From assembly GCA_038231455.1 (NCBI GenBank), contig JBBRLI010000002.1:64001-128000 (forward strand): a stretch of DNA of 64,000 nucleotides, written 5' to 3'. The notes under the pieces are model-generated. The model was not told where the DNA came from. It saw nothing but the letters and a program-made list of their open reading frames with translations, and did no database searches. Each line of letters starts with the position of its first letter. Positions within the stretch are counted from its first letter, which is position 1. Positions 3,190-58,036 of the stretch are shown piece by piece. The translations under genes and the position numbers were made by a program. Source of the DNA: Vulcanimicrobiales bacterium. Its GTDB lineage: Bacteria; Vulcanimicrobiota; Vulcanimicrobiia; Vulcanimicrobiales; Vulcanimicrobiaceae.

Positions 3190-4936
3190 CGATCGGCGCA
3201 CGCGCCTCGACGGTGTCGCCGGCTTTGACGTGAACGTTTTCGATCGTCCCGGCTTTATGGGCGCGAATTTCGTTCATCATTTTCATCGCCTCGATCACGG
3301 CGACGACCTGACCCTCGGCAACGAGCGCACCGTTTGCGGCGCTAACTTCGACGACGACGCCGTGCATCGGTGATACGACATCGTTCCCTTGCGGGGCTTG
3401 CGCTTTTCGCGTTCCGCCTTTGACGATCGATTTTGCAGCGCCGGTGGGGCGCGCGGTAGCGATGCCGGATGGGAGATCGATGAAGCGCACGCGGAAGAGC
3501 TTGTCGTTGACTTCGACGCGGATCGGTTCGCTCGGCGCGGGCGCGGCCGCGGACTCTTCGGATGGGACGTTGCCGCTAGCCGTCGTGCGCGCTGCCGCGA
3601 ACGGTTCGAGCGTTGCCGTTCCATAGCTCGCATCGAGAACGGGCGCGAAGTCGGCGAGCTCGCGCAAGAGCGAGCGCGTCGTTGGAACGCCTTCGACGAT
3701 GTATTCGTCGATAGCGCGGCGCAGACGTTCGAGCGATTCATCGCGCGTACGTCCCCAAACGATGAGTTTAGCAATCATCGAGTCGTAGTCGGGGGTGATC
3801 GCAAAACCGGTCGACGCGGCGGAGTCGACGCGCACGCCGAAACCCGCAGGCTCGCGATACGCGGTAATCGTACCGGGAGCCGGCCGGAAGTTGTGCGCGG
3901 GATCTTCGGCGTTGATGCGCACTTCGATCGAATGACCGCGAAAGTCGATCTGCGGTTGTGCGAATGTCAGCGGCCGACCGGCAGCGACGAGAATTTGCTC
4001 GCGCACAAGATCGATGCCGGAGATCATTTCGCTCACGGTGTGCTCGACTTGAATGCGCGTGTTCATCTCGAGGAAGAAGAACTCATTACCCGCGACCAGG
4101 CACTCGATCGTGCCGACACTATCGTATGCGATGGCTTTCGCCGCAGCGATGCCCGCCGCGCGTAAACCTTCGCGAACGTGATCGGAGATGAGCGCGGGCG
4201 CCTCTTCCCAAACTTTTTGATGGCGACGCTGCAGCGAACAGTCGCGCTCGCCAATATGCACGACGTTGCCGTATTTGTCGGCGAGGATCTGCAGTTCGAT
4301 GTGCTTGGGATTATCGAGATACCGTTCGGCGTAGATCGTGCCGTTGTTAAAATAGGCGGTCGCCTCACGCTGGGCGGTCGTGAACGCGGATTCGACATCC
4401 TCGAGCGTCCGTGCGACTTTGAGGCCTTTGCCGCCTCCGCCGCCCGAGGCTTTGAGAGCCAGCGGTAAACCGAACTGTGCGGCGGCCTTGCGTGCGCCGG
4501 CGCCATCGAGGATCGGTTCGGTTCCGCCCGGGACGACCGGGACGCCCGCTTTGATCATCGCTTGGCGCGCGCGGACTTTGTCGCCCATCGCATCGATTGC
4601 AGCGGGCGTCGGCCCGATCCACGTCATGCCCGCATCGATCACCGCCTGAGCGAATGACGCGTTTTCGGCGAAAAAACCGTAGCCGGGATGAATGGCATCG
4701 GCGCCGGCGCGCTTGGCGACCTCGAGAATTTTGTCGCGATTGAGATAGCTCTGCGCGGGCGGCGCCGGGCCGAGTAAATAGGCCTCGTCGGCAAGCGAGA
4801 CGTGCCGGGCGTCGCGATCGACTTCCGAGTAGACGGCGACGGTTTTGATGCCGAGTTCGCGCGCGCTGCGCATGATGCGGATCGCGATCTCGCCGCGATT
4901 CGCGACGAGCATTTTGCGAAACGGTGCCTCAGCCAC
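3167..4936 (-). CDS. accC: acyl-CoA carboxylase alpha subunit (biotin carboxylase fused to biotin carboxyl carrier domain)
   Basis: ANRGEIA, HPGYGF, GGGGKG, RDCSLQRRHQK, EMNTRIQVEH and C-terminal EAMKM biotinylation motif; GTG at 4936 overlaps the upstream stop (GTGGCTGA). Confidence 0.93.
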   Translation of the reverse strand: MAEAPFRKMLVANRGEIAIRIMRSARELGIKTVAVYSEVDRDARHVSLADEAYLLGPAPPAQSYLNRDKILEVAKRAGADAIHPGYGFFAENASFAQAVIDAGMTWIGPTPAAIDAMGDKVRARQAMIKAGVPVVPGGTEPILDGAGARKAAAQFGLPLALKASGGGGGKGLKVARTLEDVESAFTTAQREATAYFNNGTIYAERYLDNPKHIELQILADKYGNVVHIGERDCSLQRRHQKVWEEAPALISDHVREGLRAAGIAAAKAIAYDSVGTIECLVAGNEFFFLEMNTRIQVEHTVSEMISGIDLVREQILVAAGRPLTFAQPQIDFRGHSIEVRINAEDPAHNFRPAPGTITAYREPAGFGVRVDSAASTGFAITPDYDSMIAKLIVWGRTRDESLERLRRAIDEYIVEGVPTTRSLLRELADFAPVLDASYGTATLEPFAAARTTASGNVPSEESAAAPAPSEPIRVEVNDKLFRVRFIDLPSGIATARPTGAAKSIVKGGTRKAQAPQGNDVVSPMHGVVVEVSAANGALVAEGQVVAVIEAMKMMNEIRAHKAGTIENVHVKAGDTVEARAPIVTLAPTP

Positions 4937-5123
4937 GAAGACGTCCGTGCATCGCCCAGAGCGATGTCGAGCGCGCGGCCGCACGCGTATTGGCGGCGTC
5001 GCTTGTGTGGATGCGAGCGGCGATGCGCCACGGTGCCATGCTTCGTGTTTCCTCGCGAGCGGATTGCGTTTGGAGGAGTGCGGTTGCTGCTGCGATTACC
5101 GCGGCCAGTTCATCATCGGTCAT
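4929..5123 (-). CDS. putative acyl-CoA carboxylase epsilon (AccE-like) small subunit
   Basis: 64 aa, MTDDELAAVIAA...W..AAR...W..HGR; coupled by ATGA and GTGGCTGA overlaps between the hydrolase and the carboxylase. Confidence 0.6.
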   Translation of the reverse strand: MTDDELAAVIAAATALLQTQSAREETRSMAPWRIAARIHTSDAANTRAAARSTSLWAMHGRLRG

Positions 5124-6532
5124 GCGATTTCGCTTGGGGTCGTGACGGTGCGTGGGGCATGCGTCTCGCGTTTGTCGATGCTGGCGACGAGCCGATCGAA
5201 TGCCGCCCACGCAAACGGCGCTTGCGCTTGCAGCCCGTACCCGAAAGCCGCAAACGTATCGACATGGGTGCCGCCTTGCACGAGGAAGAGTTGGTGAAGC
5301 GCGGATTTTCTCGCGGCGGCGATCGCACGAACGTAGGTGTGTGCGTTGTTCTCCGGGGTGATAAAGGCGTCGTGCGTTCCGGCGATCGAGACAAGTGGTT
5401 TTTCGATCGCGCCGCTATGCGCGAAACGTTTGATCGCCGTGCGTCCGGCCGCTGAGACGATGTAGTTCGCTCGATTCTCCGCAAGCGCCAAGCCGGTACC
5501 CGTGCAAGCAACGGGGAGACGCGGATTTGCATCGGGCGTGCACGGCGCCGGGCCAAACGCCGCGGTAGCCTCGGGGTCGACGAGTTGCGCGTACGCATAG
5601 ACGGTGAGGTCGGCGTAATACGGTGGGACGTTGGAATAGTATTCGCCGTAGAGCGAGCGATGTGCGTGGTCCGCTTGTACGACGTCGCGTGGAAATCCGA
5701 ACTTCACGAGTCGATCGACTAGCGTCGTGTCGCGGTACTCGCTGCGAAGATAGTCGGGCATCAGTTTGAGAAACGGCGGGAAGTAGTCGAGAAAGCTTTG
5801 CTCGGGCGACCAGTAGACGCCGGCCCATTCAACACCGCCGTCGACGAGTTCGGGATGGCGCTCGAGCAACGTGCGCACTTGCGCGCCGCCGTTCGAGAGT
5901 CCAACGGCATACGTGTGTTTTGGCGCAGCGTGATTGGCTTTGAGGACGTCTTTTGCGTGCAACACCAGGCGCCGGTAGCTTTCGTTCCAGTCTTGGATCG
6001 GCACGGGTTTTGGTTCGAGCAGACCGAGGCGAATGACGAGTCCTTTGCTTGCAAGGCCGGCTGCTTCGAAGGGGATCGGATATGCGGCACGGGGTGCGGG
6101 CGTCGCGGCCGCGGCCTCGACGACAGCGTTGTAGGGAACGCCCTTGTTGCCTGAGGCAAACGCGTAGCCGCGGGCGAGTGCGAATTCGCCCCAGATGAGA
6201 TCGTTTGCATACGCACTGCGCGTCGCGGGCGTTCCGGCAACGATGAGCGATCCGTTCCACGCATCGGGAACGCGAATCACGGAGGCGTCAGCCGGAACGT
6301 CGTTTGTGTAAATTCGGCCGGGGATCGGAGTCTTTGCGGGCGTTATCGTCGTCGGCATCAGCAGCGCTTTGGCATCGCCGGCCGGATCGAAACCGGGGCG
6401 TTTTTCCGGCAGCGGTGCATAGCCGAAACGCAGATCGGCGACATGGTCGCTCATGCTAGCAGCGATCGCGCGCGATGCCGTCAGGGTAAGTGCGCTCGCA
6501 GCGAGCGAGGCTGCGAACGTTCGGCGCTGCAC
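5120..6532 (-). CDS. Tat-exported alpha/beta hydrolase (tannase/feruloyl esterase or 3HB-oligomer hydrolase-like)
   Basis: MQRRTF signal peptide; GLSNGG nucleophile elbow; candidate triad Asp (GTHDAFI) and His (GTHVD). Confidence 0.75.
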   Translation of the reverse strand: MQRRTFAASLAASALTLTASRAIAASMSDHVADLRFGYAPLPEKRPGFDPAGDAKALLMPTTITPAKTPIPGRIYTNDVPADASVIRVPDAWNGSLIVAGTPATRSAYANDLIWGEFALARGYAFASGNKGVPYNAVVEAAAATPAPRAAYPIPFEAAGLASKGLVIRLGLLEPKPVPIQDWNESYRRLVLHAKDVLKANHAAPKHTYAVGLSNGGAQVRTLLERHPELVDGGVEWAGVYWSPEQSFLDYFPPFLKLMPDYLRSEYRDTTLVDRLVKFGFPRDVVQADHAHRSLYGEYYSNVPPYYADLTVYAYAQLVDPEATAAFGPAPCTPDANPRLPVACTGTGLALAENRANYIVSAAGRTAIKRFAHSGAIEKPLVSIAGTHDAFITPENNAHTYVRAIAAARKSALHQLFLVQGGTHVDTFAAFGYGLQAQAPFAWAAFDRLVASIDKRETHAPRTVTTPSEIA

Positions 6533-7327
6533 TTACGAGCCGGTCTCCGCGGGTTTGGGGAACATCCCCATCACGTGATACCCGCAGTCGACGAAGTGGA
6601 TGTCGGCGGTAATCGCTTTCGAGAGATTCGAGGCAAGATAGACGGCGAGGTTGCCGATGTCATCGCCCGTGATATTGCGTTTGAGCGGCGCGACGGATTC
6701 AACCATGTCCAGCATATGCTTGAGGTCTTTGACCTGACGCGAGCTTGCGGTTTTGATCGGGCCTGCGGAAATTCCATTGACGCGAATCCCGCGGTCGCCA
6801 AGATCGAAGGCGAGGTAGCGAACGATCGATTCGAGCGCGGCTTTTGCTATGCCGGCAATATTGTAGTTCGGCACGATCGCCGTTGCGCCGTAGTACGTAA
6901 GTGCCATCACGCTAGCGTTATCGCGTAGCTGCTCGCGCAGCGCTCCCACGAGCGCGATGAGCGAGAACGACGAGATGTCCATCGCAAGCGCGAAGCCGGC
7001 GCGCGAGGTATCGTAGACTTTTCCCATCAGGTCTTCTTTGTTGACGAAGGCAATCGAGTGGACGATGCCGTCGAGTCCGCCAAGATCACGCCCGACGTTT
7101 TCCGCCAGCGTCTTGAGCTCTGCATCCGAGGTGACGTCGCACGGATAGCATGGGCCGCCGCCGAGTTCTTTGGCCAGCTTCTCGACTTCGTCTCTGAGGC
7201 GCTCGCCCTGGTAGATGAATCCCAGTTTTGCGCCTTGCTCGGCCATCGCGCGGGCGATGAACGTCGCGATGGACCAGCGATTCGCCACCCCGGTGATGAG
7301 GATGGTCTTGCCTTCTAGTAGCTTCAC
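6533..7327 (-). CDS. fabI: enoyl-ACP reductase
   Basis: GVANRWSIA, HSIAF, YNIAGIAKAALE, ISAGPIKT; likely GTG start at 7327. Confidence 0.93.
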   Translation of the reverse strand: MKLLEGKTILITGVANRWSIATFIARAMAEQGAKLGFIYQGERLRDEVEKLAKELGGGPCYPCDVTSDAELKTLAENVGRDLGGLDGIVHSIAFVNKEDLMGKVYDTSRAGFALAMDISSFSLIALVGALREQLRDNASVMALTYYGATAIVPNYNIAGIAKAALESIVRYLAFDLGDRGIRVNGISAGPIKTASSRQVKDLKHMLDMVESVAPLKRNITGDDIGNLAVYLASNLSKAITADIHFVDCGYHVMGMFPKPAETGS

Positions 7328-7337
7328 GAATTGAGTG

Positions 7338-7724
7338 TTAAGGCGTCGCTCCTGGCGATGCCTGCGCCGCACCGGTGAGGGCGCGAACGACGCGGCCCCG
7401 GCCGGTTTGGTCGAGCTCCATCACCTCCGCGACGAGCGCTCCGTCCTCGCGGCGGTAGAGAATCGTCAAGATGCCGATTCCGACGAGGGCGTCGACAAAG
7501 GTGAACCGCAGCCCCGGCGTAGCGAGGCTGCGTTCGATATGCGCGCGGAGCCGGTCGGATCCGACCAGCCAACCCGAGGGGATGCCCCAACGCGTACGCA
7601 CACCCGGTGCGCAATACCGCACATCGTCTGTATAGCAGGCGACGATCGAATTGAGGTCGCCACGATTCCAAGCCGCGCACCAATCTTCGCCGATGCGACG
7701 CGCAGCAGAGGGATCGATGTTCAT
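7338..7724 (-). CDS. NTF2/SnoaL-like protein
   Basis: W..AWN.GDL..I...Y.DDV.Y pattern typical of SnoaL_2 domains. Confidence 0.75.
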   Translation of the reverse strand: MNIDPSAARRIGEDWCAAWNRGDLNSIVACYTDDVRYCAPGVRTRWGIPSGWLVGSDRLRAHIERSLATPGLRFTFVDALVGIGILTILYRREDGALVAEVMELDQTGRGRVVRALTGAAQASPGATP

Positions 7725-7966
7725 CGTTTCACGAGTGGAAACGCAACCCGGACATTTTCGAAGATCGCCCGGCGCCGTTCTGTTGGCCGAAGGATCGAAA
7801 CCGTCGTGAGCAAGGCCTTCGTATCGGTAAGAACGTGCGAACGTTCGTTAAGCGTGTAGATTGACATCGAGAACGATCAACGACGACGGAGATTCTGCCG
7901 CGTCGAGGAGGTTCTGGACGTTGTATAGCACAGGCGTTGAAGGCATCGTGATGTCAATTTTGCCTC

Positions 7967-9541
7967 CTAGAGCGGAATGTTGCCGTGTTTGCGATGGGGG
8001 CGCTCGACGCGTTTGTTTGCGAGCATCGTAAGGGCGCGGGACACGGCGCGGCGCGTTTGGCTTGCGGCGATCACGTCGTCGACGTATCCGCGCTGCGCTG
8101 CAATGAACGGGTTGGCGAAACGCTCGCTGTACTCGGCGACGAGTTCGTCGGTTTTCGCTTGCGGATCGAGCGCATCGGCGATGTCGCGGCGGAAGATCGT
8201 CTTCACGGCCCCTGCCGCGCCCATGACCGCGATTTCGGCCGTCGGCCAGGCAAGGTTCACGTCGGCCCGGATGTGCTTTGAGGCCATGACGTCATACGCG
8301 CCGCCGTACGCTTTGCGCGTGATGATCGTAATCTTGGGGACGGTCGCCTCGGCGAAGGCGTAGAGCAGCTTTGCACCGTGCTTGATAATGCCGCCGTACT
8401 CTTGCGTCGTGCCGGGTAGGAAGCCGGGGACATCGACGAAGGTCAGCAGCGGGATGTTGAATGCATCGCAAAAGCGCACGAACCGCGCGGCCTTTACGGA
8501 TGAATCGATGTCGAGCACGCCGGCGAGAAACTTCGGCTGATTCGCGACGATGCCGACCGACTTGCCGCCGACGCGACCGAAGCCAATCACGATGTTTTGC
8601 GCGAAAAGCGGCGCAATCTCAAAGAAGTCGCCGTCATCGAGTACGGGGCAGACGGCATCGAGAATATCATAAGGTTTGTTCGGCGAGTCGGGGATCACGC
8701 CGTCGAGTTCGCCCGCAACGCGCAGCGGATCGTCGTCGCTCGGCACTAGCGGCGGATCTTCCAGATTATTCTGCGGAATGAACGAGAGCAAACGTCGTGT
8801 TTGTTCGTTCATGTCGTCTTCGTCGGTTGCGGTGAGATGTGCGACGCCGGACTTGGTGGCGTGCGTCATCGCGCCGCCGAGTTCTTCGAAGCTCACATCC
8901 TCGCCGGTGACCGTCTTGATGATTTCGGGTCCGGTGATGAACATCTGCGAGATTTTCTCGACCATGATCGTAAAGTCGGTAATCGCGGGCGAATAGACCG
9001 CGCCACCCGCACACGGTCCGGCGATCAGCGAAAGCTGCGGAACGACACCGCTGGCCTGCACGTTGCGCCAGAAAATTTCTGCATACCCGCCGAGGCTCAC
9101 GACGCCTTCCTGGATGCGCGCTCCACCCGAATCGTTGATGCCAATCATCGGCGAACCGGTGCGCACGGCTAGGTCCATGACTTTGCAAATTTTCTCAGCG
9201 AAGACTTCGCCCAGCGATCCGCCGAGCACGGTGAAATCTTGCGAGAAGAGGAAGACCTGGCGCCCGTCGATCGTGGCGTGACCGGTGACGACACCGTCGC
9301 CTAAGAACGGCCGTTCATCGAGTCCAAATGCGGTGGATCGGTGGACCGCAAAGCGATCCATCTCAACAAACGAGTCGGGATCGACCAGCGCATCGACACG
9401 CTCGCGCGCCGTCCGCTTCCCACGTTCGCGCTGGCGGTCGTTTGCCGCCTCGCCCGCGGGGGCGAGGGATTCCGTGCGCATGGCGTCCAGGCGCGCGTAG
9501 GCTTTATCGTGCGGCGAGAGCGGCTCGGTTGGCGTCGACAT
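7967..9541 (-). CDS. pccB: acyl-CoA (propionyl-CoA type) carboxyltransferase beta subunit
   Basis: GDGVVTG, DSGGARIQEG, GPCAGGAVYSPA, DVPGFLPG, RKAYGGAY, C-terminal RKHGNIPL. Confidence 0.95.
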   Translation of the reverse strand: MSTPTEPLSPHDKAYARLDAMRTESLAPAGEAANDRQRERGKRTARERVDALVDPDSFVEMDRFAVHRSTAFGLDERPFLGDGVVTGHATIDGRQVFLFSQDFTVLGGSLGEVFAEKICKVMDLAVRTGSPMIGINDSGGARIQEGVVSLGGYAEIFWRNVQASGVVPQLSLIAGPCAGGAVYSPAITDFTIMVEKISQMFITGPEIIKTVTGEDVSFEELGGAMTHATKSGVAHLTATDEDDMNEQTRRLLSFIPQNNLEDPPLVPSDDDPLRVAGELDGVIPDSPNKPYDILDAVCPVLDDGDFFEIAPLFAQNIVIGFGRVGGKSVGIVANQPKFLAGVLDIDSSVKAARFVRFCDAFNIPLLTFVDVPGFLPGTTQEYGGIIKHGAKLLYAFAEATVPKITIITRKAYGGAYDVMASKHIRADVNLAWPTAEIAVMGAAGAVKTIFRRDIADALDPQAKTDELVAEYSERFANPFIAAQRGYVDDVIAASQTRRAVSRALTMLANKRVERPHRKHGNIPL

Positions 9542-9586
9542 GCGATGCGTCTTCGCAAAGGGGATGACGGCGCCCCGCGCCCATCG

Positions 9587-11365
9587 CTACGGTTTGCGCG
9601 CCACTTCGGCCGCCCGTTGGAGTTTCTCAATCTGGTCTTTGCCAATGAACCGGGACATCGTCTGGTAAACCGGTCGCGTCGCGTCGACAAAGGCGGCGCG
9701 CTCGGCCGGAGTAAGCGAGACGATCTCGAGCGATTTACCGAGTTCGGCAAGAGTCGTCTTGTCGAGGGTCTCGGCCTCGCGGCGTTCCCATGCGATCGTC
9801 TCAGCGATGGCGTTGTCGACGAGTGGGCGGTTCTCGCCTAGGGCGTCGTACCAGGCGCCCGACGCTACGACGACCTGCGGGGTGTACATGTGCGCGGTGA
9901 GCGTTAGATATTTTTGAACGTCTTGCAGCTTGAATGCGGCGATCGTCGCTAGGGGATTGTGCTGGCCGTCGATCTCGCCTGCTTGGAGCGCGGCGCGCAA
10001 ACGCGGAAGCGCGATTGGGCGAGCGATCGTATCGAGCGCATCGCCGATAGCAATGTGCACCGGCGACTCGACGACGCGGATGCGAAGGCGACGGATGTCG
10101 GCCGGCGTGCGAATGGCGCGCACGTTGTTCGTCATGTGCCGAAATCCGTTCTCGAAGAAACCAAGACCGACGAGTCCGATGCGGCGCAGCGAGTCGAGCA
10201 GTTCGCGACCATATGGACCATCGAGCAGCGCGGCGACGTGTCGGCGGTCGTCGAGCAAATACGGCATCTCGAGCAGTTGAAAGGCCGGCAACACGTTGCC
10301 GACGATCGCGCAGCCGATCGAGGCCAACGTGGTCTCGCCGCGGCGCACGGCTGAGAGGATGCCGATCTCGCCTTTGCCGCCCGACGAATCGCCCGGGCGC
10401 GCTTCGACACGCGTGCTCGGCAGAGCAGATCCGAGTCGGCGTGCAAGCTCGGTGACGCTACGTCCCGCGAGCGACTCGGCCGCAAGACCCGTCGAAACGA
10501 TAATGGGCCCGGTTGCGATCCGCGAACCGGTGTCCATCTCGATCAAGTGGTAGTCGATCGCGTTGATCGCGAGGATCGCCTCTGCCGCATCGGCCACGTG
10601 CGAGCGCGACGTGCGCATCAGCTCGGCGGCGCTGCGTCCAAACTGATTTGCGCGCGCCGCGTGATCGGACGTCGTATTTCTCACACCGTCGAAGGCTTCT
10701 TCGGTCGACCGGACGGCGGTGCCGATTTCGCCGAGTGCAGCGCGCGCACTCGCCGCTGCGCGATCGCCCGCTGCAACGGCCTCATCGGCCGAATCGGCAA
10801 CGGCCGTTGTTTTCTCGGTGCCGCGTCGCACGTCGGCGAGCAGATTCTCCATCGTCTTGGTTGCATCGCGCGTCGAGTCGGCGAGCTTGCGCACTTCGCT
10901 TGCAACGACCGCGAAGCCGCGACCGTGTTCGCCCGCGCGTGCGGCTTCGATTGCGGCGTTGAGGGCGAGCAAATTCGTGCGCGCGGAGACTTCGCCGACG
11001 AACGCGACGATCTCATCGATGCGCCCGAGCGTTTCGACGAGTTCGAGCATCGTTTCGCGCGCGGAGCGCGAACCCGAGGCGAGCATCTCGACGCTCTCGA
11101 CAAGTTTTTCGATCGACGCGCCGGCGGAATCGACGCGTTCGCGCGCGGCGTGCGCGCGCGTTGCAGCATCGCGAATCTCTTCGAGCGATTTCCCTAAGTC
11201 GTTTGCCATCGATTCGGATACGTCGGCGATCTCTTGCAAGCCGACGCTCTGCGTGGCGGAATTATCGGAGATGCGGCGCGAGGTCTCGCGCAGGCGGGAG
11301 GCAGCAAAACGCATGCTCTCCGTAAGAGCACCGTGTTCAAGAGCGCTATTTCCCGTCGACTCCAT
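9587..11365 (-). CDS. soluble methyl-accepting chemotaxis protein fused to C-terminal TRAP DctP-type binding domain
   Basis: MCP tip [33 protein letters not shown], then DctP motifs [26 protein letters not shown]; no TM segment or signal peptide; probable start MESTG at 11365. Confidence 0.88.
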
Positions 11366-11445
11366 CGATGAAATCTTCGGCCAACCCGCCAACACCCCCG
11401 CCAACCGGCGGCATCTCTTTACCATGAGGCGAATAGGCTGGCTCG

Positions 11446-11973
11446 ATGATTGATCCGCAACTTCTGGTTGCTGCACGCGGGGGTGATCCGAATTCAATGG
11501 ACGCACTCCTGCGTGAGTTGTGGCCGGATGCCTTCCGGATCAGTTTTTTGCTGCTTCGCGATCGCGCGGCGGCAGAAGATTCAGCCCAGGATGCTCTCGC
11601 TCGGGTGTGGGCGACCCTCGACGATCTGAATGACCTTGCGGCCTTTCCCGCGTGGTTTTACCGACTCGTTGTGAACGGTGCGAAAATGCAGCAGCGAGGC
11701 GCTGGGCGTCGGCGGGTACGCGAAGAAACGTCCGTATCGATCGAGGTATCCAGAGATGAAGACGACCGTATTGACGTCAACTCCGCGATCCGCTCGCTGC
11801 CGGAGTGGCTCCGCGTTCCGGTCGTGCTGCACTACTAGGCCGGCCTAACGAGTGCCGAAATTGGTCGAATTCTCGACGCGCCAGCGGCAACGATTCGTTT
11901 TCGACTCTCGCTCGCTCGACGTCAACTTCGCCCGAAACTCGACGTTGAATCTACGATTCAGGTGGCTTTATGA
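11446..11973 (+). pseudogene. ECF sigma-70 factor interrupted by in-frame TAG at 11836-11838
   Basis: Region 2 (AAAEDSAQDA...FPAWF), then VVLHY*AGLTSAEIGRILDAPAATIRFRLSLARRQL (region 4) continuing in frame to TGA at 11971-11973, which overlaps the next ATG. Confidence 0.85.
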
Positions 11974-12725
11974 ACGACAACCAAATTGGATCACAAATTT
12001 GTCGCAACGTTGCATCGATCGTGCCCCCAGCATATGCTGCTAGCGAAGTCGCACGCAAGCATCTCGCGATGAAGTCTCTGCCTTTGAGCCCTCAAAAGCG
12101 CGAGCGGAAGCAATTTATTCTGGCGGGGCTGGCTTCGCTCTTGGTCATCGCGCCGGCTGGAGCGTATGCGACGCATGCCCAGAAGGTCGATGACACGTTG
12201 CGCGGCGCGATGCGATCCTTCGGAATCCAAATGGTCGGCCCGATATCATCGAACGACCCGCAGGCGATCAGTCTTGCAGATGCTGAATCGCGAGCTCCAT
12301 TCAAGGTTCTTGTGCCGAAAATGGCAGCGAGCGCGCGGCTCGAGCACATCTACCGGAGCAATGGAGAGCACGTCGGCGATACGGTCGAGCTCCTGTATCG
12401 CCTTAACGGCACACCGGGACGTCCGCTTATTAATTTCCAGGAATCAGCGAAACCGTTGACCGTTCCGAAGCACGATCCGCGGGCTAATCGCGAGTTTGAA
12501 CTCTATGGTGAATACTATTACGCGGAACACCTTATGGACAAACAAAAGCCAGAACTTAAACTCATCCGTCCTGCGATCTGGGAGGCTGGCTCGACAAGTA
12601 TTCGCGTTTTCAATGGTGATAAGATCTCAGCGGCTGAGTTGAACGCTATTCGGCGATCGATGAACGCGCGCGAGATCGTAGCAGCACGTCAAATGCTAAC
12701 GATCGTACCGAAGCACGATCGTTAG
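11970..12725 (+). CDS. putative anti-sigma factor (single TM, extracytoplasmic C-domain)
   Basis: ATGA-coupled to the ECF gene; short N-domain, TM segment FILAGLASLLVIAPAGAYA, then SLADAESRAPFKVLVP. Confidence 0.65.
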   Translation: MNDNQIGSQICRNVASIVPPAYAASEVARKHLAMKSLPLSPQKRERKQFILAGLASLLVIAPAGAYATHAQKVDDTLRGAMRSFGIQMVGPISSNDPQAISLADAESRAPFKVLVPKMAASARLEHIYRSNGEHVGDTVELLYRLNGTPGRPLINFQESAKPLTVPKHDPRANREFELYGEYYYAEHLMDKQKPELKLIRPAIWEAGSTSIRVFNGDKISAAELNAIRRSMNAREIVAARQMLTIVPKHDR

Positions 12726-13091: not shown

Positions 13092-13661
13092 CTAGGTGTT
13101 CGATTGGTTCCAGGCAGCGGCCCGGGCAAGGTCGGCGGGGGAGTCGACGTCCATGATCGCGCCAACGTCGTCGATCGGCATCGCGTGGATCACGAGGCGC
13201 TGGTCGCGGCGCAGTTCGCGTAAGGTATCGCCATCGGCGACGCCGCCGAGTAAAGCGCGTGCGCGCGGCCCGAAGACGACCGGATGGGCCGGGCGGCCGT
13301 TGTGTTCGGGTGAGACGACATCGACGCTCGGGTTATAGCAAGCAACGACCCGGTCGACGAGCGCCTGCGTGACATAGGGTAAGTCGGCTAATAAAACAGC
13401 GATGGCTGCATCCGCGGGGATGCAACCATCGGCGAGTTTGAGCGAGTACGTCATCCCGCGTTCGGGTTCCGTATTGATGATGACGCGGCGCTTGGTCGAC
13501 GCGGCGACGTGTAAGGCGATCTCGTGGCTTGCAACGACGATGCTCGGCGCATCCCCGCACGCATCGAGGGCGCGCGCGATCAGCGTTCGCCCATCGAAGG
13601 TGGCGAGGAGTTTTGCCGAACCGAAGCGTCGCGCTGCGCCCGCGGCGAGCACGACGCGCAC
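13092..13661 (-). CDS. mocA: molybdenum cofactor cytidylyltransferase (MocA-like NTP transferase)
   Basis: VLAAG.A.RFG..KLL, GM..SL, LADLP, HPV.F, DVD.P.D; start uncertain (GTG 13661 or CTG 13673). Confidence 0.82.
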
Positions 13662-13665
13662 GATC

Positions 13666-15810
13666 TCAGGCAGTGAAGCCGTGCCGCACGAACGGAAGAC
13701 TCCGCACGCGCGTTCCTGTTGCCGCAAAGATGGCGTTGGCAACCGCCGGAGCGATCGGCGGCGTGCCGGGTTCGCCAACGCCGCCGGGGCTTTCGGTATT
13801 CTGGACGATCTGCACGTCCATGTGCGGTGCTTCGGCCAGATGCACCATCGGATAGTCATAGAAGTTGTTCTGCGCGACGCGTCCTTTATCGATTGTGATC
13901 TCGCCGTAGAGCGCGGCGGTCAGACCGTAGATCATCGCGCTCTGCATTTGCGCTTCGACGGTGTTCGGATTGACGTATGTGCCGCAGTCGACGACGCATG
14001 CGATCCGGTGGACGCGAAGCTTTTTCTTGGCATCGACGGAGACCTCGGCGACTTCAGCGACGATGGTGCCGAACGATTCGTGCAGCGCGATCCCGCGTCC
14101 GTGACCTTTGGCAAGCGGCTTGCCCCAATCGCCGAGTTTTGCGGCCATCTCAAGCACGTTGAGATGGCGTGCTTCTTTGGCGAGCAGCGGCCGGCGGAAT
14201 TCGACGGCGTCTTTGCCCGCGGCGTGTGCCATCTCGTCCATGAAGCTCTCGAAGAAGAAGCCGTTCTGCGAATTGCCGACCGAGCGCCAGAAGAAGACCG
14301 GCACGGCGAAATTCTTCATCACGGTATCGACGGTGAAGTTCGGAATCGCGTACTTCTTATCGGCGCAGCCTTCGACCGAGAAACTATCGGGTTTGTCGGG
14401 CGGGGGCGGCGGGAATCCGAGCTGGGGATTTGAGACGAGCAGCGAGGGGGTGACGATGCGCTGTTGCCAAGCAACGAGATTGCCGCTCGCATCGAGTCCG
14501 CCTTTGAGCTGGGTGAGCGAGGTCGGACGGAACGTGTCGTGTTGAATATCTTCTTCGCGGGACCATACCAGTTTGACCGGCTTGCCGATCATCGTCGAGA
14601 TTTGGATCGCTTCGGCCGCAAAGTCGAGGTTGAAGCGCCGACCGAAACCGCCGCCCAAATAGGTCGTGTGAATTTTGATCGCGCTCGGCGGTAAACCGGT
14701 CATTTTCGCCGCGAGGCCCGCGAGGGGGCCCGGAGCTTGCGAGGGTGCCCAGACTTCGCACGATGTTTTCGTGACCGACGCCGTGCAGTTCATCGGTTCC
14801 ATCGTTGCGTGCGCGAGATACGGCGCGTAATATTCCGCAGTCACGACTTTGCTGGCCGTTTTAAGCGTGCCGTCGGCATCGCCGACGGTCGTTGCTATGA
14901 CGGGTTTTTCGTTCATACCGGCGCGCAGGGTCGTTTCGATTTTCGCGCTACTCAGGGTCGCGTCGCCGCCGGTGTAGCTGATTTTCAGCGCTTCGACCGC
15001 TTTTTTGGCACGGTAATAGCGGTCGGAAACGACAACGGCAGCCGTCTTCATGTTCAGCACCTGATGCGGGCCTTTGAAACCCTTGATCGGGGTGTCATCG
15101 ATGCTCGCGATCGTCGAACCGAACACCGGCGCGTGGCGAATCGCCGCATACACCATCCCCGGCACTTTGACGTCGATCCCAAATCCGGCTTTGCCCTGGA
15201 CTTTGGCGGAGGTGTCAACGCGTGGGACGGACTTTCCGATGATCGTCCACGCTTCACGCGGTTTGAGTTCGACTTTTTCCGGCGGCGGAATCGTCGCCGC
15301 CGCACCCGCAAGCGAACCGTATGTAGCGCTGCGTTTACTCGCGTCGTGATAGACCATCGACTTTGCCGTGCGCAGTTCGTTTGCGGGCACGTTCCACTGC
15401 GTGGCGGCGGCGCCGACGAGCATGGCACGGGCACTTGCGCCGGCTTGACGCAGCGGCATGAAGAAGCCGCGAATTGCCGATGACCCACCCGTTGCCATCG
15501 TCTGGAACGGCGGGTTGTTGTAGGCCTTATCGACCTGCGGTGCATCGACGATGACGCGAGCCCAGTCGGCGTCGAGTTCTTCTGCGACCAGCATTGGCAG
15601 CGAGGTCATGACGCCTTGACCCATTTCCGACTGCGGTGCGTATATGGAGATCGTGTTGTCGGGCGAGATCTTGATCCATGCGCCGATCGGCGTGGACGTC
15701 ATTGCGGCTTCGGCGCGGCGTGCGGTAAATGGAAGCGAGACATCGAGGAGTAGGCCGCCGCCGGCGATAGCCGTTGCGCGTAAAAAAGACGATCGATCCA
15801 TCATCTTCAT
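13666..15810 (-). CDS. molybdopterin-binding large subunit, isoquinoline 1-oxidoreductase beta (IorB)-like
   Basis: [40 protein letters not shown]; Tat-like N-terminus. Confidence 0.92.
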
Positions 15811-16259
15811 GCGTTCGCCGCCCGATGGATCGCCTTGCGAATGCGGCTATAGGTGCCGCAGCGGCACACGTTGGTGACGTTCTCATCGATCTGTGCATCG
15901 GTTGGTTTGGGATGTTTTTTCAAAAGTGCCGCCGTTGCCATGATGAAGCCGGGCTGGCAGTAACCGCACTGCGGTACTTCTTCAGCGATCCAGGCTTCTT
16001 GAATCTTTGTGAGATGCCCATCCGCAGGCGGCAGACCCTCGATCGTGGTGATCGATTTGCCTTTGACTTGATCGAGCGTCACGGAGCACGAACGCACGGC
16101 CTCGCCGTTGACGTGCACGGTGCACGCGCCGCAAAGTGCAACGCCGCAACCGAATTTCGTTCCGGTGTAGCCAACGGTATCGCGAATCACCCACAGCAGC
16201 GGGGTGTCGCCCTCATCATCGACGCTGAATTTTTTCTTATTGACGGTCAGTTCGGTCAT
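15807..16259 (-). CDS. 2x[2Fe-2S] small subunit (IorA-like)
   Basis: TGTKFGCG...CGACTV, QCGYCQ, CRCGTY; start MTELTV at 16259. Confidence 0.93.
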
Positions 16260-16278
16260 AACGCCCCCTTGGCTAAAC

Positions 16279-17394
16279 CTACGAGGTGCTCCGCTGCACG
16301 AGCGGGGTTTCTTCCTGTCGGTGGAGCGCGCGCGATCCGCCGGTGAGACGCCCGCCGCTACGATCGTGGCGCAAGGCGATGATTTCGGCTGCGATCGAGA
16401 TCGCGGTTTCTTCGGGTGTGCGTCCGCCAAGATCTAATCCCACGGGTGATGCGAGTCGTGCGAGTTCGGTTTGGGTAAGGCCCGCTGCGCGGAGTTGCGC
16501 GACGCGTTTTGCCTGCGTTGACCGGCTGCCCATCGCACCGACGTAGATCGCTGGCGAGCGGAGCGCGTTGACGAGCAGTGGGATATCGAATTTTTCTTCG
16601 TGCGTGAGGACCACGCAAATCGAATCCGAACCGAGTGGGTTCGCCTCAAGATAGGAGTCGGGCCACTGCACGATGATTTCATCGGCATCGGGGAAACGCT
16701 CGCGCGTGGCAAACGCCGGACGCGCATCGACGACCGTCACTCGGTAACCGAGCATCGTGCCAAGACGCGCGAGTGGGCGCGCGAAATCGACGGCGCCTGC
16801 CAGCACCATGCGCGCGCGCGGACCGAAGGTACGAACGAAGATCGCGGCCTCGGTGCCGAGCGGTTCGCCACGATCGCCGTAGTGACGGCGTTCCACGTTG
16901 CCGCTTTCCGTTCGCGCATCGAGTTCGGCGGCGACGGCGTAATCCAGCCCCGGCGAGCCGAGCGTTCCACGCCGGGCACCCGCATCGATGATGAGCCGGT
17001 TGCCGATCCCCGCCGGATCCAGACGGATCGCAACGGCAAGAGGCGTCTCGTTTTCCAGCGCGCGCGCAACGTCGTCGAAAAAGCCGTCCACGCGCTCGAT
17101 GTAGACTTCGAGTTCACCACCACACGTGAGACCGACGGAGAACGGATCGCCGTCGTTTGCCGTATAGCGCAGTAGTTTGGCCGCGCCGCTTGCGATCACG
17201 CCCATTGCCTCATCGACGACGGCCCCGTCGACGCAGCCGCCCGAGAGCGACCCCGCAAATTCACCGTGTTCGTTGACGGCGAGTAATGCACCAAGTTCGC
17301 GTGGCGACGAACCACCGATGCCCACGATCGTCGCGGTAGCAACGGCATCGCCGCGCGAACGCCAGCGCGCGATGTGCGGAATGACCTCACGCAT
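16279..17394 (-). CDS. xdhC: XdhC/CoxI family Moco insertion chaperone
   Basis: [45 protein letters not shown]. Confidence 0.92.
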
Positions 17395-18025
17395 CGGCGA
17401 GTCCGCGAACACCGAAGTCCGGCACCTTACGCGCGAGGCGTTTGGCGAGAATCGAGAAGACCGGAAAGAGCATGTAGGGGACAAAGAGGAAGCGGACGTC
17501 TATTCCCGCGACGATCGCCGCGCTAAAGAACACCCCGGCGAAAAAGACAACCTGCAAGAAACGTCCCCACGCGCGCTGACGGAATGCGACATCAAAGCTG
17601 TCCCAGCGCAGGCGGAGTCCGCGATACATCGTGATGGCATTCGCGGCGGAGATCAGCCCCGAGGCTGTCGCGTACAAGCTATTCGCGAACGGGTCGGTCA
17701 TGAACTTAAACCAGATCTGCAGCAGATACGGGAAGAGCGCGACGAGTGCGAGCTTCACGAACGTCAGCACGATGTTGAAACGGTCGGGAAAGAAATAGTA
17801 GGCGAAGATGTTGTGCTGATAGCCCCAAAACATCGAGACGAGTGCAAAAGCAAAGGCGAATCCGATCAGCCCAAGCGGACTCGTGAAAATTTCCGAGGCA
17901 TGGTCTTTGGGTATGACGAGCTGAACGCCCGTAATCGACAAGCTCAAGCCAAAGACGATGTCGCTGAATGATTCGAGTCGTCGCGTGAAATGCGCGTCCG
18001 ATTCTTTTTTGGTCAGCATCCCCAA
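17387..18025 (-). CDS. TMEM175 (DUF1211) family membrane protein, putative K+ channel
   Basis: RLESFSD.VF signature, W..H motif, about six TM segments. Confidence 0.75.
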   Translation of the reverse strand: MGMLTKKESDAHFTRRLESFSDIVFGLSLSITGVQLVIPKDHASEIFTSPLGLIGFAFAFALVSMFWGYQHNIFAYYFFPDRFNIVLTFVKLALVALFPYLLQIWFKFMTDPFANSLYATASGLISAANAITMYRGLRLRWDSFDVAFRQRAWGRFLQVVFFAGVFFSAAIVAGIDVRFLFVPYMLFPVFSILAKRLARKVPDFGVRGLADA

Positions 18026-24192: not shown

Positions 24193-24205
24193 AAGTACGT
24201 CCGGC

Positions 24206-27200: not shown

Positions 27201-27379
27201 GACAGCATCGACCGGTGACGGCGTACCGCATGGTCACGCGCGGCTCGGTTGAAGAAAAAATCCGGGCGCTTGCCGAGCGCAAGAGCGAGCTTTCAAAAAC
27301 CGTCATCAAAGCCGATAGCGCGGTTGCAAAGTCGCTCACGCGCGAAGACCTCGAAATGCTGTTCGCCGACCCCGACTAG
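24206..27379 (+). CDS. SWIM zinc finger / SNF2-family helicase-ATPase
   Basis: CSC....CEH SWIM; LADDMGTGKT, DEAQ, TGTPVEN, SLKAGG.GL.LT.AD, DPWWNP, QAIDRTHRIGQ. Confidence 0.93.
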   Translation: MTPFATWRSRLPASIGNWFARDLTRVALALAESGRVVLRVVEEAKIESTVKDKTAASVLIEWSTGTGPQALRSICSCGGSGICEHIVATLEAVRTQSATVPVAAGAVGAEPGEEHDYTWLPTLDVEPPRARARSVWPVLSSADGKTLTGSLYLDTPRLRGVIRDAESILTMMDGTPGDDWDESDRELIHDEATQEAFGPRTAPKALARALFRLARHPRLRFDDAPGENRHPSELTPFAIDLRGLRLRATRRGTRFVPTLEDGDGRRHDPAKAFVLDGPPAWLIVDRIAYLLDASFDPRKIVAAAQDAAAEGQAATNGTAPSTATIARVAAFLPPDERRSLGVSDALEPALLARMMWRDGALLARLAFVDRSTDARTTFSIHGAIAQVDGKFVRFGAHVAHRLSKRFIDSGFVPRGNDGFALHSADRAATVIKELLPTWDDVEVRLDDSLSALGGEGGKIDIAISTRPSEPDADGGPRQDWFELNVDVFIGDGEALTQKELAALLSTTGRFAEVRGKLVDVSQLRSRGQLINEISERKQNGLAALVALRDELHESFASVTLPEEVERLRERLRDFQGIEEVAPPAELADILRGYQRKGLDFLAYLSSFEFGGVLADDMGTGKTIQVISYLLRRKQTEGQAPSLVIAPTSVTHTWETEIARFAPDLKTLRLQSGSDRAQRFEQVNDADVVITSYALARLDAAILEKFNFRTLILDEAQNAKNPSSQIARVVRNLRADHRLALTGTPVENSLRDLWAIFAFVEPGLLGSESSFRRRFENPIADGDEKAVRALRSRLEPFVLRRTKEDVAKELPARTEAVIECDLSPLQRRLYRGIAEAARRDVLAQLDGEGGMEGATVHVLAALTRLRQVCAHPGLLVPAYIDEPEASAKFDAFIETIEEVLSGGHRVLVFSAFASMLKIMRSALEKRNISFNYLDGSTKDRDRQTEVENFMKPDGAPVFLCSLKAGGVGLTLTAADYVVLYDPWWNPAVERQAIDRTHRIGQHRPVTAYRMVTRGSVEEKIRALAERKSELSKTVIKADSAVAKSLTREDLEMLFADPD

Positions 27380-33521: not shown

Positions 33522-33568
33522 ACGGTAGCACACGCCTGCCGAGCCGTCAACTAATTCCTTAGGTGTAC
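33522..33568 (-). promoter_or_regulatory. leaderless sigma70-type promoter of blaI with overlapping operator 2
   Basis: TTGACG(33550-33545)-17bp-TACCGT(33527-33522) with TG extension, 6 nt before ATG; operator CAACTAATTCCTTAGGTGTAC at 33548-33568. Confidence 0.65.
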
Positions 33569-54180: not shown

Positions 54181-54183
54181 GCG

Positions 54184-55339: not shown

Positions 55340-58036
55340 TTAGGCGCGGCTTGCGGTGCTCCCCGCTAGTTGTCCCGTCTCTTCGGCGAAAAGCATCTGC
55401 CGCTCGCTTTCGAGATCGTGGGTCGATTCGACGGAGCGCAAACTCTCGTTGCTGTGATAGTCGATCAGCATGGACATCTCTTCAAAATTGCCGTGCATGG
55501 CAAAGGCGCGCTGCCCTTCGCTCGTTGCCTCGCGCTGCGCCTCGGAGAGCGTGTCGATGATGCTCTCGGTAAATGTGTCGATGCGCGCGAGCGCTGCCTC
55601 GGCGAGCCCCGCCTGCTTTGCGCTCCGCTCCGCTTCGCCGACGCCCGAGGCAATCGCGGTTGCCGCGGCCTTGCCGCGGCCGTCGAGATCGGCGAGGACG
55701 CCGCGCATCTGCTGCGTCGAGGCGCGCGTCTTGTCGGCAAGGCTGCGAACTTCGGTTGCGACCACCGCAAAGCCGGCGCCGTGATCGCCGGCGCGCGCCG
55801 CTTCGATTGCGGCGTTGAGCGCGAGCAGGTTGGTGCGGTCGGAGACGCCCCGGACCAGCGTGATGATCTCGCCGATCTGCCGCATGAGCGCGCCGAACTG
55901 CGTGAGGGCGTGACGGCTCTCCATCGCCATCGTTGCGAGCGTCGAAACCGCCTCGGCGAGACCGCGGACGGTTTCGCGCGTCGCGTGCACTTCATCTTGT
56001 GCCGTCGCGAAGCGCATCAGGAGATCGGTAAAGTCGTTCGCGATCTGCGTGTTGCGTTCGGCCATCTGCGCCGAGCGCTCCCCGAGTTCGAGCAATCGCG
56101 GCGTTTGTTCTTTCCCATGCATCGCCGACTCCGTCGCGGAGGTACGCACGGCGGAAATCGCCGTGTCGATCGCCTCGATGATGTCGTGAATTTGAAATTT
56201 GCGACGTGCGGCGCGCTGGGCTTCCTGGGATTGCGGCCGATCGATCTTGTGTGCGTCGCCGCCGAGCAGCAGATCGTAAATGTCATCGGGAAAAAGCGGT
56301 TGCATCCGTTCCCAAACGAAGTGACCCGCGCGCGAAAATGCGCCGCGCTCGGCTTCGGTGAGGTCGCGGACCTCCATCGTCTTGCGCAGTTCCGCAAGCG
56401 CGTGTTCCTCTTCGTCGTGCGCGATCGCGCGATGCCACGGAATCACCTCGGCCATCGTATCGATGACGAGCGCGCGGTCTTCCTCACCCAGGCGTGCTAG
56501 CGTTTCGCTGTTTGCGAGCACGACTTGCGTGTTGTAGGTGTGCGCGGTGAGCGTGAGGTGGCGCTGCACTTCGTGCAGCTTGGCGCCGTAAATGTTGGCG
56601 AGCGGATTTTCTTGCCCGTCGAGAGCACCCGTCTTGAGGGCTTCGTAAACGCCCCCAAATGGCATGACTTTCGGTGCGGCGGAGAACGCGTGCATCAGCG
56701 CAAGATAGACGACTGAGTCCTGAATGCGCATGCGCATTCCGCGCACGTCCGCCGGCGTTGCAATTGCGCGCGAGGCGCTCGTCATGTGGCGGATGCCGTT
56801 CTCGAAATACCCCATGCCGGTAAGGCCGAACGGTTCGAACGCCGAGAGGACGCGCGCGCCGAGCCCGCCGTCGAGAACGCGATGTGCGGCGCTCGCGCTC
56901 GGAAAAAGAAACGGCAGATCGAAGACTTGCGCGAGCGGAAGGAGCGAACCCGCGATGTATGTCGTGACGCTCACGAAATCGAGTTGACCCGAGCGCACCT
57001 GCATGAGCATCTCGAGTTCGCTTCCGGCGAAAGGCACCTGGAGTTCGACGGTGATGCGTCCGCCGGTGCGCTCGCGAACCTGTTGCGCGAAGCGCTCCCA
57101 TGCGCGCGACGGCGGATAGCCCGGCGGTAATTGCGTCGCGCAGCGTAAGGTCGTGATCGCTTCATCGCGCGGATGCGCGGGGCGCGAGAAATACATGATC
57201 TCCGCGCCGTAGTAGGCGAGGCGCTGCGTCGAAAACGCGGCTTCGATCGCTTGTCGCCCTTGGGTCTCGGCGATTTGCGCGAGCGTTTGCGTTTCGCGCC
57301 CGATCGCCGTCGACGTCTCCGCGTGGGCGCGGCCGATCGCAACCGATTCTTGCAGTGCGCGCATAACGTCTTGCGCGAGTGCTGCGACGCGTTCTAGGGA
57401 CGAGCGCGCGGCGATTGCGATCGGTGCGGATTTTGCGGACCGCTCGGCCGATTCGCGCACGGAGGTGATGGTGACTTCGGCTTGCGCTTGAATCTGTTCG
57501 ACGAGTTCTTTGATCGCATGCGTCGAGTCGCTGGTCGCCTTCGCCAGTCGTCCGACCTCGCCCGCGACAACCGCAAAGCCGAGTCCGTGCGTACCCGCGC
57601 GCGCCGCTTCGATCGCGGCGTTGAGCGCGAGAAGCTGGGTTTCGTCGCTCACGTCCTCGACGAATTCGGTCATCTGCCCGATCTCGCCCATCAGTCGACC
57701 GAAATCGTCCATCGCGGCAGCCGTTCCGGTTGAAAGTTCGGCGAGCCGCTGAACGGACGAAAGCAGTTCCTCGACGATGTGTAGCGAGTCGGTGAGATCG
57801 CCCGATGCGCTGCGCGCATCCGCCTGCGTTGCCTCCAGACGCGCGACCGTTGCGGTTGACTCCTCAGCGAGTAAACCCGCCGATTCGGCGAGTGCGGCCA
57901 TGAGCATTGTCTGTTCTTGGGCGTTTGCTGCAATCGATTCGGAAGCGGTACGTACGGCATCGGCCGATGTCGCTAGCGACTGCGCGAATTCATCGAGACG
58001 CGGAATATCGGGCAGCAAGTCCAGGACGATCGACAA
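55340..58036 (-). CDS. soluble chemoreceptor with two MCP signalling domains flanking a TRAP DctP-type domain
   Basis: Two tips ([24 protein letters not shown] and [24 protein letters not shown]) around [23 protein letters not shown]; no TM segment. Confidence 0.88.

Follow-up and report, generated by a model that had tools for sequence, protein, structure and literature searches.

A predicted family of cytoplasmic chemoreceptors with a C-terminal DctP domain in Eremiobacterota

A 64,000-nucleotide stretch of Vulcanimicrobiales bacterium DNA (GenBank assembly GCA_038231455.1, contig JBBRLI010000002.1, positions 64,001 to 128,000 of the forward strand; hereafter the window) carries a minus-strand gene, at 9587..11365 of the window, whose product joins a signalling hairpin of the methyl-accepting chemotaxis protein (MCP) type to a C-terminal DctP domain, the fold of TRAP solute-binding proteins (SBPs). 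Here we propose, at a probability of about 0.6, that this MCP-DctP protein acts as a class IV cytoplasmic chemoreceptor, with an intracellular hydroxy- or keto-carboxylate as its ligand and CheA and CheW as its signalling partners. TRAP SBPs are textbook extracytoplasmic proteins; here a whole clade of them appears to lie inside the cell, as sensor domains.

Homologues were counted by architecture among the best 120 clusters returned for the product (P0001). PF00015 together with PF03480 and without HAMP is present in 47 of these, comprising 33 clusters of 581-617 residues (the short class, to which P0001 belongs) and 14 of 839-898 residues (the long class, with the order MCP-DctP-MCP), while HAMP occurs as a third domain in 3 further clusters. 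Together with a paralogue confirmed elsewhere in the window, the shared architecture bears out the view of an earlier note on this DNA that the fusion represents a real family rather than an artefact, and the named sources indicate that the family is mainly one of Eremiobacterota, a soil phylum.

Architecture and location of the MCP-DctP protein

The reading frame at 9587..11506 on the minus strand is uninterrupted and open for 639 residues in the open reading frame (ORF) list, and translation from the ATG at 11365 gives a 592-residue product with an MCP hairpin at approximately residues 6-279 followed by a DctP fold at 288-590. Both MCPsignal and DctP are matched in Pfam, as expected from the earlier description of a single MCP domain followed by DctP, and the motifs quoted in that description are all present in P0001 (ENGFRH at 405-410, LRIRV at 427-431 and DGQHNP at 466-471). 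The start codon is ambiguous, because P0002 (604 residues) and P0003 (605 residues) have similar sequence 12-13 residues upstream of the position of this ATG but P0004 (592 residues) begins at it; the true start may be the TTG at 11404, an uncertainty of 13 codons. The features of the gene and its product are as follows.

9587..11365, minus strand: MCP-DctP gene, 592 residues from ATG 11365 to the stop codon TAG at 9587-9589 (ORF list, translation, Pfam and 33 similar clusters of about 590 residues)
11366..11404, minus strand: possible 13-codon N-terminal extension from the alternative TTG start at 11404 (alignment of P0002 and P0003)
10529..11350, minus strand: MCP hairpin, with helix 6-143, turn 144-148 and helix 149-279 (AlphaFold2 model, Pfam and NCBIfam partial matches)
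10880..10969, minus strand: hairpin tip, residues 133-162, the canonical kinase and coupling-protein contact region (invariant columns)
10505..10573, minus strand: junction, residues 265-287, linking the hairpin's C-terminal helix to the first strand of DctP and including NAIDYH at 268-273 (alignment; predicted local distance difference test score, pLDDT, 73-79)
9596..10504, minus strand: complete DctP-family (TRAP SBP) fold, residues 288-590, without a signal peptide (Pfam, phmmer, Foldseek)
10367..10369, minus strand: codon of E333, matching the acidic residue 76 (Asp76) of 4P47 (register mapping)
10139..10141, minus strand: codon of R409 (in ENGFRH), second carboxylate-binding arginine, matching Arg152 of 4P47 (alignment)
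10076..10078, minus strand: codon of R430 (in LRIRV), carboxylate-clamping arginine, matching Arg173 of 4P47 and Arg147 of SiaP (alignment)
9956..9958, minus strand: codon of N470 (in DGQHNP), matching Asn213 of 4P47 (alignment)

According to an AlphaFold2 model built from 34 family members (mean pLDDT 85.7), the N-terminal part of P0001 is a classical long antiparallel coiled-coil chemoreceptor hairpin, for which the predicted helix lengths give an estimate of about 38-40 heptads (38-40H). MCPsignal (PF00015) is matched at residues 104-249 with an E value of 6.9e-33 and 114.3 bits against a gathering score of 34.6, and in NCBIfam the signalling regions of many named chemoreceptors are matched in part. 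The hairpin tip, which we take to be the region that contacts CheA and CheW, has 17 columns invariant between L133 and A162 across the 34 family members, with N136, E140, G148, G150 and F151 each confirmed at 34/34 on recount, and the only sensible reading of this invariance is that the tip still meets its usual partners. This assignment of the tip draws on PMC8466855. A C-terminal CheR-binding pentapeptide was considered and is excluded in P0001, as its C terminus is the DctP domain.

Between the end of the hairpin and the DctP fold the model leaves eight residues. L265, A269 and E276 of the junction are nearly invariant in the alignment of the short class; the junction of the long class differs yet is conserved too, with F268 to R285 invariant.

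The DctP domain (PF03480) is matched at residues 322-570 (E 5.1e-57; 193.8 bits against a cut-off of 23.4), and P0001 also passes the cut-off of NF037995, the TRAP_S1 family of NCBIfam (136.3 against 50). Although the Pfam match begins at profile position 32, the fold is complete, as indicated by whole-structure alignment in Foldseek, where the listed top hits reach TM-scores of 0.85-0.93, normalised to target, over 300-317 columns; 4pdh (0.90), 7bco/7bbr, 4p47 (0.85), 4nq8 and 4xeq are among them. The model describes residues 288-590 as a two-lobed alpha/beta domain with pLDDT mostly above 90, and the best Protein Data Bank match by phmmer is 4p47 (E 1.8e-46). No match to DctQ or DctM was found among the 47 window ORFs scanned, and identity as a transporter subunit is accordingly rejected in favour of a DctP-fold domain.

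To place the pocket, R409, R430 and N470 were put on chain positions 152, 173 and 213 of 4p47 by HMMER alignment, and E333 on position 76 by its register to a conserved L-S-x-x-x-x-G stretch, a placement less certain than those of the arginines. In the accessible part of PMC11668362, Arg152, Arg173 and Asn213 (4P47 numbering) are the typical carboxylate-binding set and the acidic residue 76 usually hydrogen-bonds a ligand hydroxyl; in the accessible part of Fischer et al. (PMC4646407), the arginine equivalent to Arg147 occurs in 96.8% of DctP proteins and confers high affinity and carboxylate selectivity. Across 34 short-class sequences, R430 is present in every one, the R409 column holds R in 29, K in 4 and G in 1, the E333 column holds E in 29, D in 1, Q in 2 and P in 2, and H492, the counterpart of the hinge histidine of SiaP (PMC4089482), is kept in 33. 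N470 is Asn in 19 of the 34, and position 469 is variable, with Glu in none, a variation that suggests differing ligand specificities inside the family. In the long class, both pocket arginines, the Glu-Asn pair and the histidine are invariant in 15/15 sequences (R416, R437, E476 and N477 among them).

With R430 invariant, the pocket is not degenerate, degeneracy being what the earlier note had named as undermining its proposal; R409 is Arg or Lys in 33/34, E333 is Glu in 29/34 and H492 is retained in 33/34. Because the carboxylate-binding residues are kept, the sensing of an intracellular organic acid, put forward in the same note, stands as the best reading of the sequence. Our best guess at the putative ligand class, a small hydroxy- or keto-carboxylate, is taken from the nearest solved relatives, which the available text of PMC11668362 describes with bound pantoate or erythronate, and 7BBR with 2-keto-3-deoxy-gluconate, its authors cautioning that co-purified ligands are possibly not native.

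A hydropathy scan set against two controls detects no transmembrane (TM) segment or signal peptide anywhere in P0001: the top 19-residue Kyte-Doolittle mean is 1.74, at residue 347 within the DctP core, compared with 2.29 for a permease of the window and 2.44 for the TM anchor of P0052, in keeping with the absence of a TM segment claimed before. P0001 is thus predicted to be soluble and, as its DctP domain lacks a signal peptide and stands behind a cytoplasmic hairpin, that domain is placed in the cytoplasm.

Family distribution and origin of the fusion

The family clusters derive from sources named Candidatus Velthaea, Candidatus Baltobacteraceae and Candidatus Eremiobacteraeota, the exceptions being one metagenome-assembled genome labelled Candidatus Sulfotelmatobacter and one Pelosinus (the latter a HAMP form); Velthaea and Elarobacter are placed in Vulcanimicrobiaceae, and the phylum Vulcanimicrobiota is the same as Eremiobacterota. 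An ESM Atlas cluster of 249 members (888 residues) shows the two domains in every member (100%) and is drawn most often from Vulcanimicrobiota. From Bacillota and Spirochaetota, the same resource has comparable proteins in which an MCP is fused to a binding-protein fold of another kind. Automatic annotations already record both domains in the family clusters; our literature searches found no paper describing MCP-DctP or MarR-DctP fusions, and the accessible part of a review of SBP signalling (PMC8050422) mentions DctP only as a free protein. A contig scan with generic MCP tip patterns returned at least 78 loci of unrelated MCPs, with 25-53% identity in the MCP part only.

A second member of the family lies about 44 kb from the first, and Pfam places two MCPsignal stretches on either side of its DctP domain.

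55340..58036, minus strand: paralogue of MCP-DctP-MCP architecture, 898 residues (Pfam, 14 similar clusters of 839-898 residues, BLASTP, AlphaFold2)

Over 577 collinear residues it is 33% identical to P0001 (BLASTP, E 5e-79), making it the diverged paralogue that had been noticed at this distance. Its AlphaFold2 model (pLDDT 74) has helices at 12-284 and 616-897. At several positions that are normally conserved, the tip of its N-terminal hairpin deviates from the canonical motif, and does so invariantly throughout the long class.

Trees were built by quick search from domains excised with family hidden Markov models. The DctP tree (84 rows: 20 short, 9 long, 3 HAMP forms, 3 of a class of about 680 residues, 4 MarR-DctP and 45 free DctPs, the last being the closest full-length hits) places the short, long, 680-residue and MarR forms on one side of a branch with a Shimodaira-Hasegawa-like approximate likelihood ratio test (SH-aLRT) support of 100, and all 45 free DctPs together with the HAMP forms on the other, with no long branches flagged. 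Within it the long class forms a clade (support 100) that is sister to the short and MarR forms (support 94). The MCP tree (68 rows) unites the short-class hairpin with both long-class hairpins in one split (support 99), and the two long-class hairpins are sisters (support 90), which points to internal duplication. Independent origin of the two fusions, named beforehand as a ground for giving up the idea, is contradicted by the supports of 100 (DctP) and 99 (MCP); as both trees agree with the collinear alignment, the two window genes appear to descend from a single ancestral MCP-DctP fusion.

Searched exhaustively, the DctP part by itself matched 10,950 proteins at E values up to 0.001, of which the top 12 are 11 MCP-DctP proteins, whole or truncated, and one tandem DctP. 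A signal-like hydrophobic N terminus is present in 44/45 of the closest free DctPs, and a hydrophobic stretch ahead of the DctP domain in 0/39 of the fused proteins. Four proteins of the cytoplasmic DctP clade carry an N-terminal MarR DNA-binding domain, and a search with one of them gave 29 MarR-DctP clusters among 37 hits, of about 436-582 residues (P0131, P0133, P0134, P0147 and P0267-P0293), whose named sources (Baltobacteraceae, Vulcanimicrobiaceae and Elarobacter) are all Eremiobacterota. In domain content these resemble one-component transcription factors whose sensor is a TRAP binding protein. The class of about 680 residues (P0157, P0185, P0219 and P0301-P0310) comprises 12 MCP-DctP clusters of roughly 618-715 residues, one of them named Candidatus Rokubacteria; its DctP domain falls in the cytoplasmic clade but the MCP domain sits with ordinary MCPs, a combination suggesting that domain shuffling extends beyond Eremiobacterota. 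As far as sequence can tell, the signal-less DctP domain provides the input for cytoplasmic outputs of at least two kinds, and the clade can be regarded as a portable carboxylate-sensing module that nature has coupled to both kinase-control and DNA-binding outputs.

Proposed mechanism, gene context and alternatives

We propose that the MCP-DctP hairpin pairs with a second copy to form a four-helix bundle and that its conserved tip docks to CheW and CheA, both by analogy with other MCPs. The two DctP lobes would close around a small intracellular hydroxy- or keto-carboxylic acid, and this closure would pull or twist the attached C-terminal signalling helix through the junction, altering kinase activity at the tip. 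The output would be a Che-type phosphorelay; to judge from a cultured relative, its target is probably not flagella but type IV pilus motility or some other process under Che control. Both receptors, the short form as well as the MCP-DctP-MCP paralogue, would trace back to one ancestral fusion. According to the accessible part of PMC9758169, that relative, Vulcanimicrobium alpinum, is the one cultured member of Vulcanimicrobiaceae and has cheA, cheW, cheY, cheC, cheB and cheR with three annotated mcp genes, as well as type IV pili, no flagellin and pilus-based phototaxis; a Che pathway is therefore present in the same family, which we count in favour of signalling through CheA and CheW.

Several observations weigh on the other side. 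We know of no MCP for which control by a C-terminal Venus-flytrap domain has been demonstrated, and the coupling step is conjecture. No CheA, CheW, CheY or other Che protein was found among the 47 ORFs scanned in the 64-kb window. P0001 falls below the cut-off of the NCBIfam dctP subfamily TIGR00787 (151.6 against 175.05 bits), which the paralogue passes with 219.5, indicating divergence of the P0001 domain from the SBPs of transporters. The short class varies at pocket positions 469 and 470, and the MCP tree carries a long-branch warning, both trees being quick searches.

The gene contexts of the two receptors bear on what they might serve.

9542..9586, minus strand: spacer of 45 bp before the next gene, lacking any terminator-like hairpin (sequence, terminator scan)
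7967..9541, minus strand: acyl-CoA carboxyltransferase, PccB/MmdA-type (Pfam, NCBIfam)
7338-7724, minus strand: SnoaL (Pfam, NCBIfam)
6533-7372, minus strand: FabI (Pfam, NCBIfam)
5120-6532, minus strand: alpha/beta hydrolase (Pfam, NCBIfam)
3167-4984, minus strand: fusion of biotin carboxylase and biotin carboxyl carrier protein (Pfam, NCBIfam)
51043-55311, minus strand: branched-chain-type ATP-binding cassette (ABC) transporter operon with a binding protein, two permeases and two ATPases (Pfam)

The stop codon of the MCP-DctP gene ends at 9587 and the same-strand carboxyltransferase gene starts at 9541, reproducing the 45-bp spacing reported in the earlier note; eight terminator-like sites were found in 7200-12000, none of them inside 9542-9586, and co-transcription of the two genes is possible. 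The carboxyltransferase matches Carboxyl_trans of Pfam with an E value of 3e-193, and its best NCBIfam match, TIGR01117 (MmdA/PccB-type), scores 782 bits, below the cut-off of 998.8. The downstream run looks like a two-subunit acyl-CoA carboxylase plus a fatty-acid-synthesis gene, and by its gene content the set resembles the acyl-CoA carboxylase of fatty-acid synthesis at least as much as it does propionate metabolism. The first gene of the ABC transporter operon (54184-55311) likewise follows 28 bp after the paralogue (55340-58036, minus strand). That each receptor gene closely precedes a run of genes on the same strand is a suggestive pattern, not evidence for a metabolic link. Divergent from the MCP-DctP gene is an extracytoplasmic function (ECF) sigma-factor gene (11437-11973, plus strand) with an in-frame TAG at 11836-11838; region 2 precedes this codon, and a region-4-like helix-turn-helix follows it with no change of frame. 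As the MCP-DctP gene also ends in TAG, this codon is not reassigned, and the internal TAG reflects either a nonsense mutation or a sequencing error, or is a site of read-through.

This arrangement invites an alternative, which we consider unlikely, in which the MCP-DctP protein is a metabolite sensor dedicated to and co-transcribed with the downstream acyl-CoA carboxylase and fatty-acid genes, its ligand being a substrate or product of the pathway and its output either a Che-like pathway in a non-motility role or a direct protein-protein effect. The 45-bp same-strand gap without a terminator-like site is what such a sensor would predict, and the paralogue similarly heads an operon, that of a branched-chain-type ABC transporter, after 28 bp; branched-chain amino-acid breakdown is metabolically tied to acyl-CoA carboxylation by established biochemistry, a tie that we infer may extend to these genes. 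Counting against it, CoA thioesters are far larger than known DctP ligands, and the conserved MCP tip points to CheA/CheW partners rather than to enzymes. We think it quite improbable that the DctP domain is instead a structural cap or spacer at the kinase-distal end, replacing the membrane in organising a cytoplasmic array and sensing no ligand, with the MCP-DctP-MCP paralogue acting as a DosM-like strut between two baseplates. Such a role accords with PMC7534058, in which cytoplasmic arrays have two layers of receptors enclosed by two CheA/CheW baseplates, and a receptor that carries two signalling domains stabilises them, a protein of this two-domain kind being encoded in the window too, and with the variation of pocket positions 469/470 in the short class; the conservation of R430 in 34/34 short-class sequences and of R416, R437, E476 and N477 in 15/15 of the long class is hard to explain without ligand binding, and the same DctP clade occurs on MarR domains in 29 clusters, where only a sensor role makes sense.

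Two further readings retain next to no weight. The exported location of ordinary DctP proteins, with signal-like N termini in 44/45 of the closest free relatives, might suggest a conventional receptor with its sensor outside, a notion effectively refuted by topology: P0001 has no signal peptide or TM segment, its DctP domain follows directly on the cytoplasmic hairpin, and a hydrophobic stretch at this place occurs in 0/39 fused proteins. That the fusion stems from faulty assembly or gene calling, or is a pseudogene in decay, is as effectively refuted by the uninterrupted frame, the 47 independent clusters from several data sources, the conservation of domains and junction and the confident model; nothing was found in its favour save the nearby ECF sigma-factor gene with its in-frame stop.

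Returning to a cytoplasmic chemoreceptor of class IV, we tentatively sketch a broader picture, which we hold to be possible but doubtful as a whole. Eremiobacterota would have made an exported TRAP binding protein into a general cytoplasmic metabolite sensor with three outputs (single-hairpin receptors, DosM-like double-hairpin receptors with the sensor in the middle and MarR factors), and the short and long receptors, with hairpins of seemingly similar length, would together build a two-layer array free of membrane, reporting the internal pool of a hydroxy- or keto-carboxylate and steering type IV pilus motility. If so, this would be metabolism-dependent taxis in a flagella-less phylum, one that is widespread in soil and barely cultured and whose one isolate moves by pili, not flagella. 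Were the ligand found, the protein would provide a defined example of how an internal metabolite is read by a chemoreceptor, a process poorly understood in the cytoplasmic receptors, and would show a C-terminal clamshell domain driving a signalling hairpin. The practical value is modest pending ligand and output.

Elsewhere in the window, a partner-switching set at 47984-51046 (plus strand) has a STAS protein, an anti-sigma-type kinase, a HATPase-SpoIIE protein and a SpoIIE phosphatase in a row, and a separate PAS-GAF-SpoIIE-HATPase protein lies at the opposite end (868-3189, plus strand). A BlaR1-type M56 peptidase is fused to pentapeptide repeats at 30868-33135 (minus strand), adjoined by a separate pentapeptide-repeat protein at 33568-34434 (minus strand). 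At 21691-27379 (plus strand), a 1057-residue SNF2-family helicase comes immediately after a ClpC/ClpB-type double AAA ATPase. The large subunit of a molybdopterin-binding dehydrogenase, with MobA-like and XdhC-like maturation genes, occupies 13092-17484 (minus strand); as called, the 255-residue MobA-like ORF overlaps the dehydrogenase ORF, and one start codon is probably wrong.

Comparison with known receptors and binding proteins

The MCP-DctP family is real, centred on one phylum and uncharacterised, and receptors that are soluble or have a C-terminal sensor are themselves already known. Class IV chemoreceptors are defined in PMC8466855, where subclass IVb has fewer than 108 residues before the signalling (MA) domain by SMART boundaries. 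P0001 resembles them in lacking TM segments, in its canonical hairpin with a conserved tip and in its short N terminus before the signalling domain, and it is a class IVb cytoplasmic chemoreceptor by this published definition, its Pfam match starting at residue 104 and its helix at residue 6, which are Pfam and model boundaries applied to a SMART-based criterion. The remark in the earlier note that chemoreceptor sensors are usually N-terminal holds in so far as a C-terminal sensor is unusual, but the arrangement is not new, since PYP lies at the C terminus in all 12 of the MCP-PYP fusions covered in the accessible part of PMC12826048. P0001 differs from both class IV receptors and MCP-PYP fusions in that its sensor is a two-lobed TRAP solute-binding fold of about 300 residues, rather than a PAS, CZB, globin or PYP domain. 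With the TRAP SBPs of known structure (4P47, 4PDH, 7BBR/7BCO, 4NQ8 and 4XEQ) it shares the complete fold, at 28-32% identity, and the Arg/Arg/Asn/acidic set, but its DctP domain lacks a signal peptide, stands behind a signalling domain and belongs to a clade separate from the 45 free relatives.

Among multidomain systems, the paralogue is reminiscent of DosM of Vibrio cholerae, a double-signalling-domain receptor that spans the two baseplates of F9 cytoplasmic arrays (PMC7534058): both are soluble, with two MCP signalling domains in one chain. The paralogue differs in having a DctP domain between its hairpins, and no F9-type gene cluster was seen in the window. The receptors of Pelosinus and relatives with the order HAMP-MCP-DctP (P0051-P0053) likewise carry DctP on the C-terminal side of the MCP domain, but they are membrane-anchored through a hydrophobic N terminus and have HAMP; their DctP domains nest among exported DctPs in the DctP tree (support 98), indicating a second, independent fusion behind an MCP. 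The MarR-DctP regulators (for example, P0131) share with the window genes a DctP domain of the same signal-less clade, whereas their output is an N-terminal MarR DNA-binding domain and not an MCP hairpin. In the free periplasmic SBPs that activate chemoreceptors (PMC8050422, accessible part), as proposed for P0001, an SBP supplies the ligand specificity; there the SBP is a separate periplasmic protein that docks to an outside sensor, whereas in P0001 it is fused to the receptor and predicted to be cytoplasmic.

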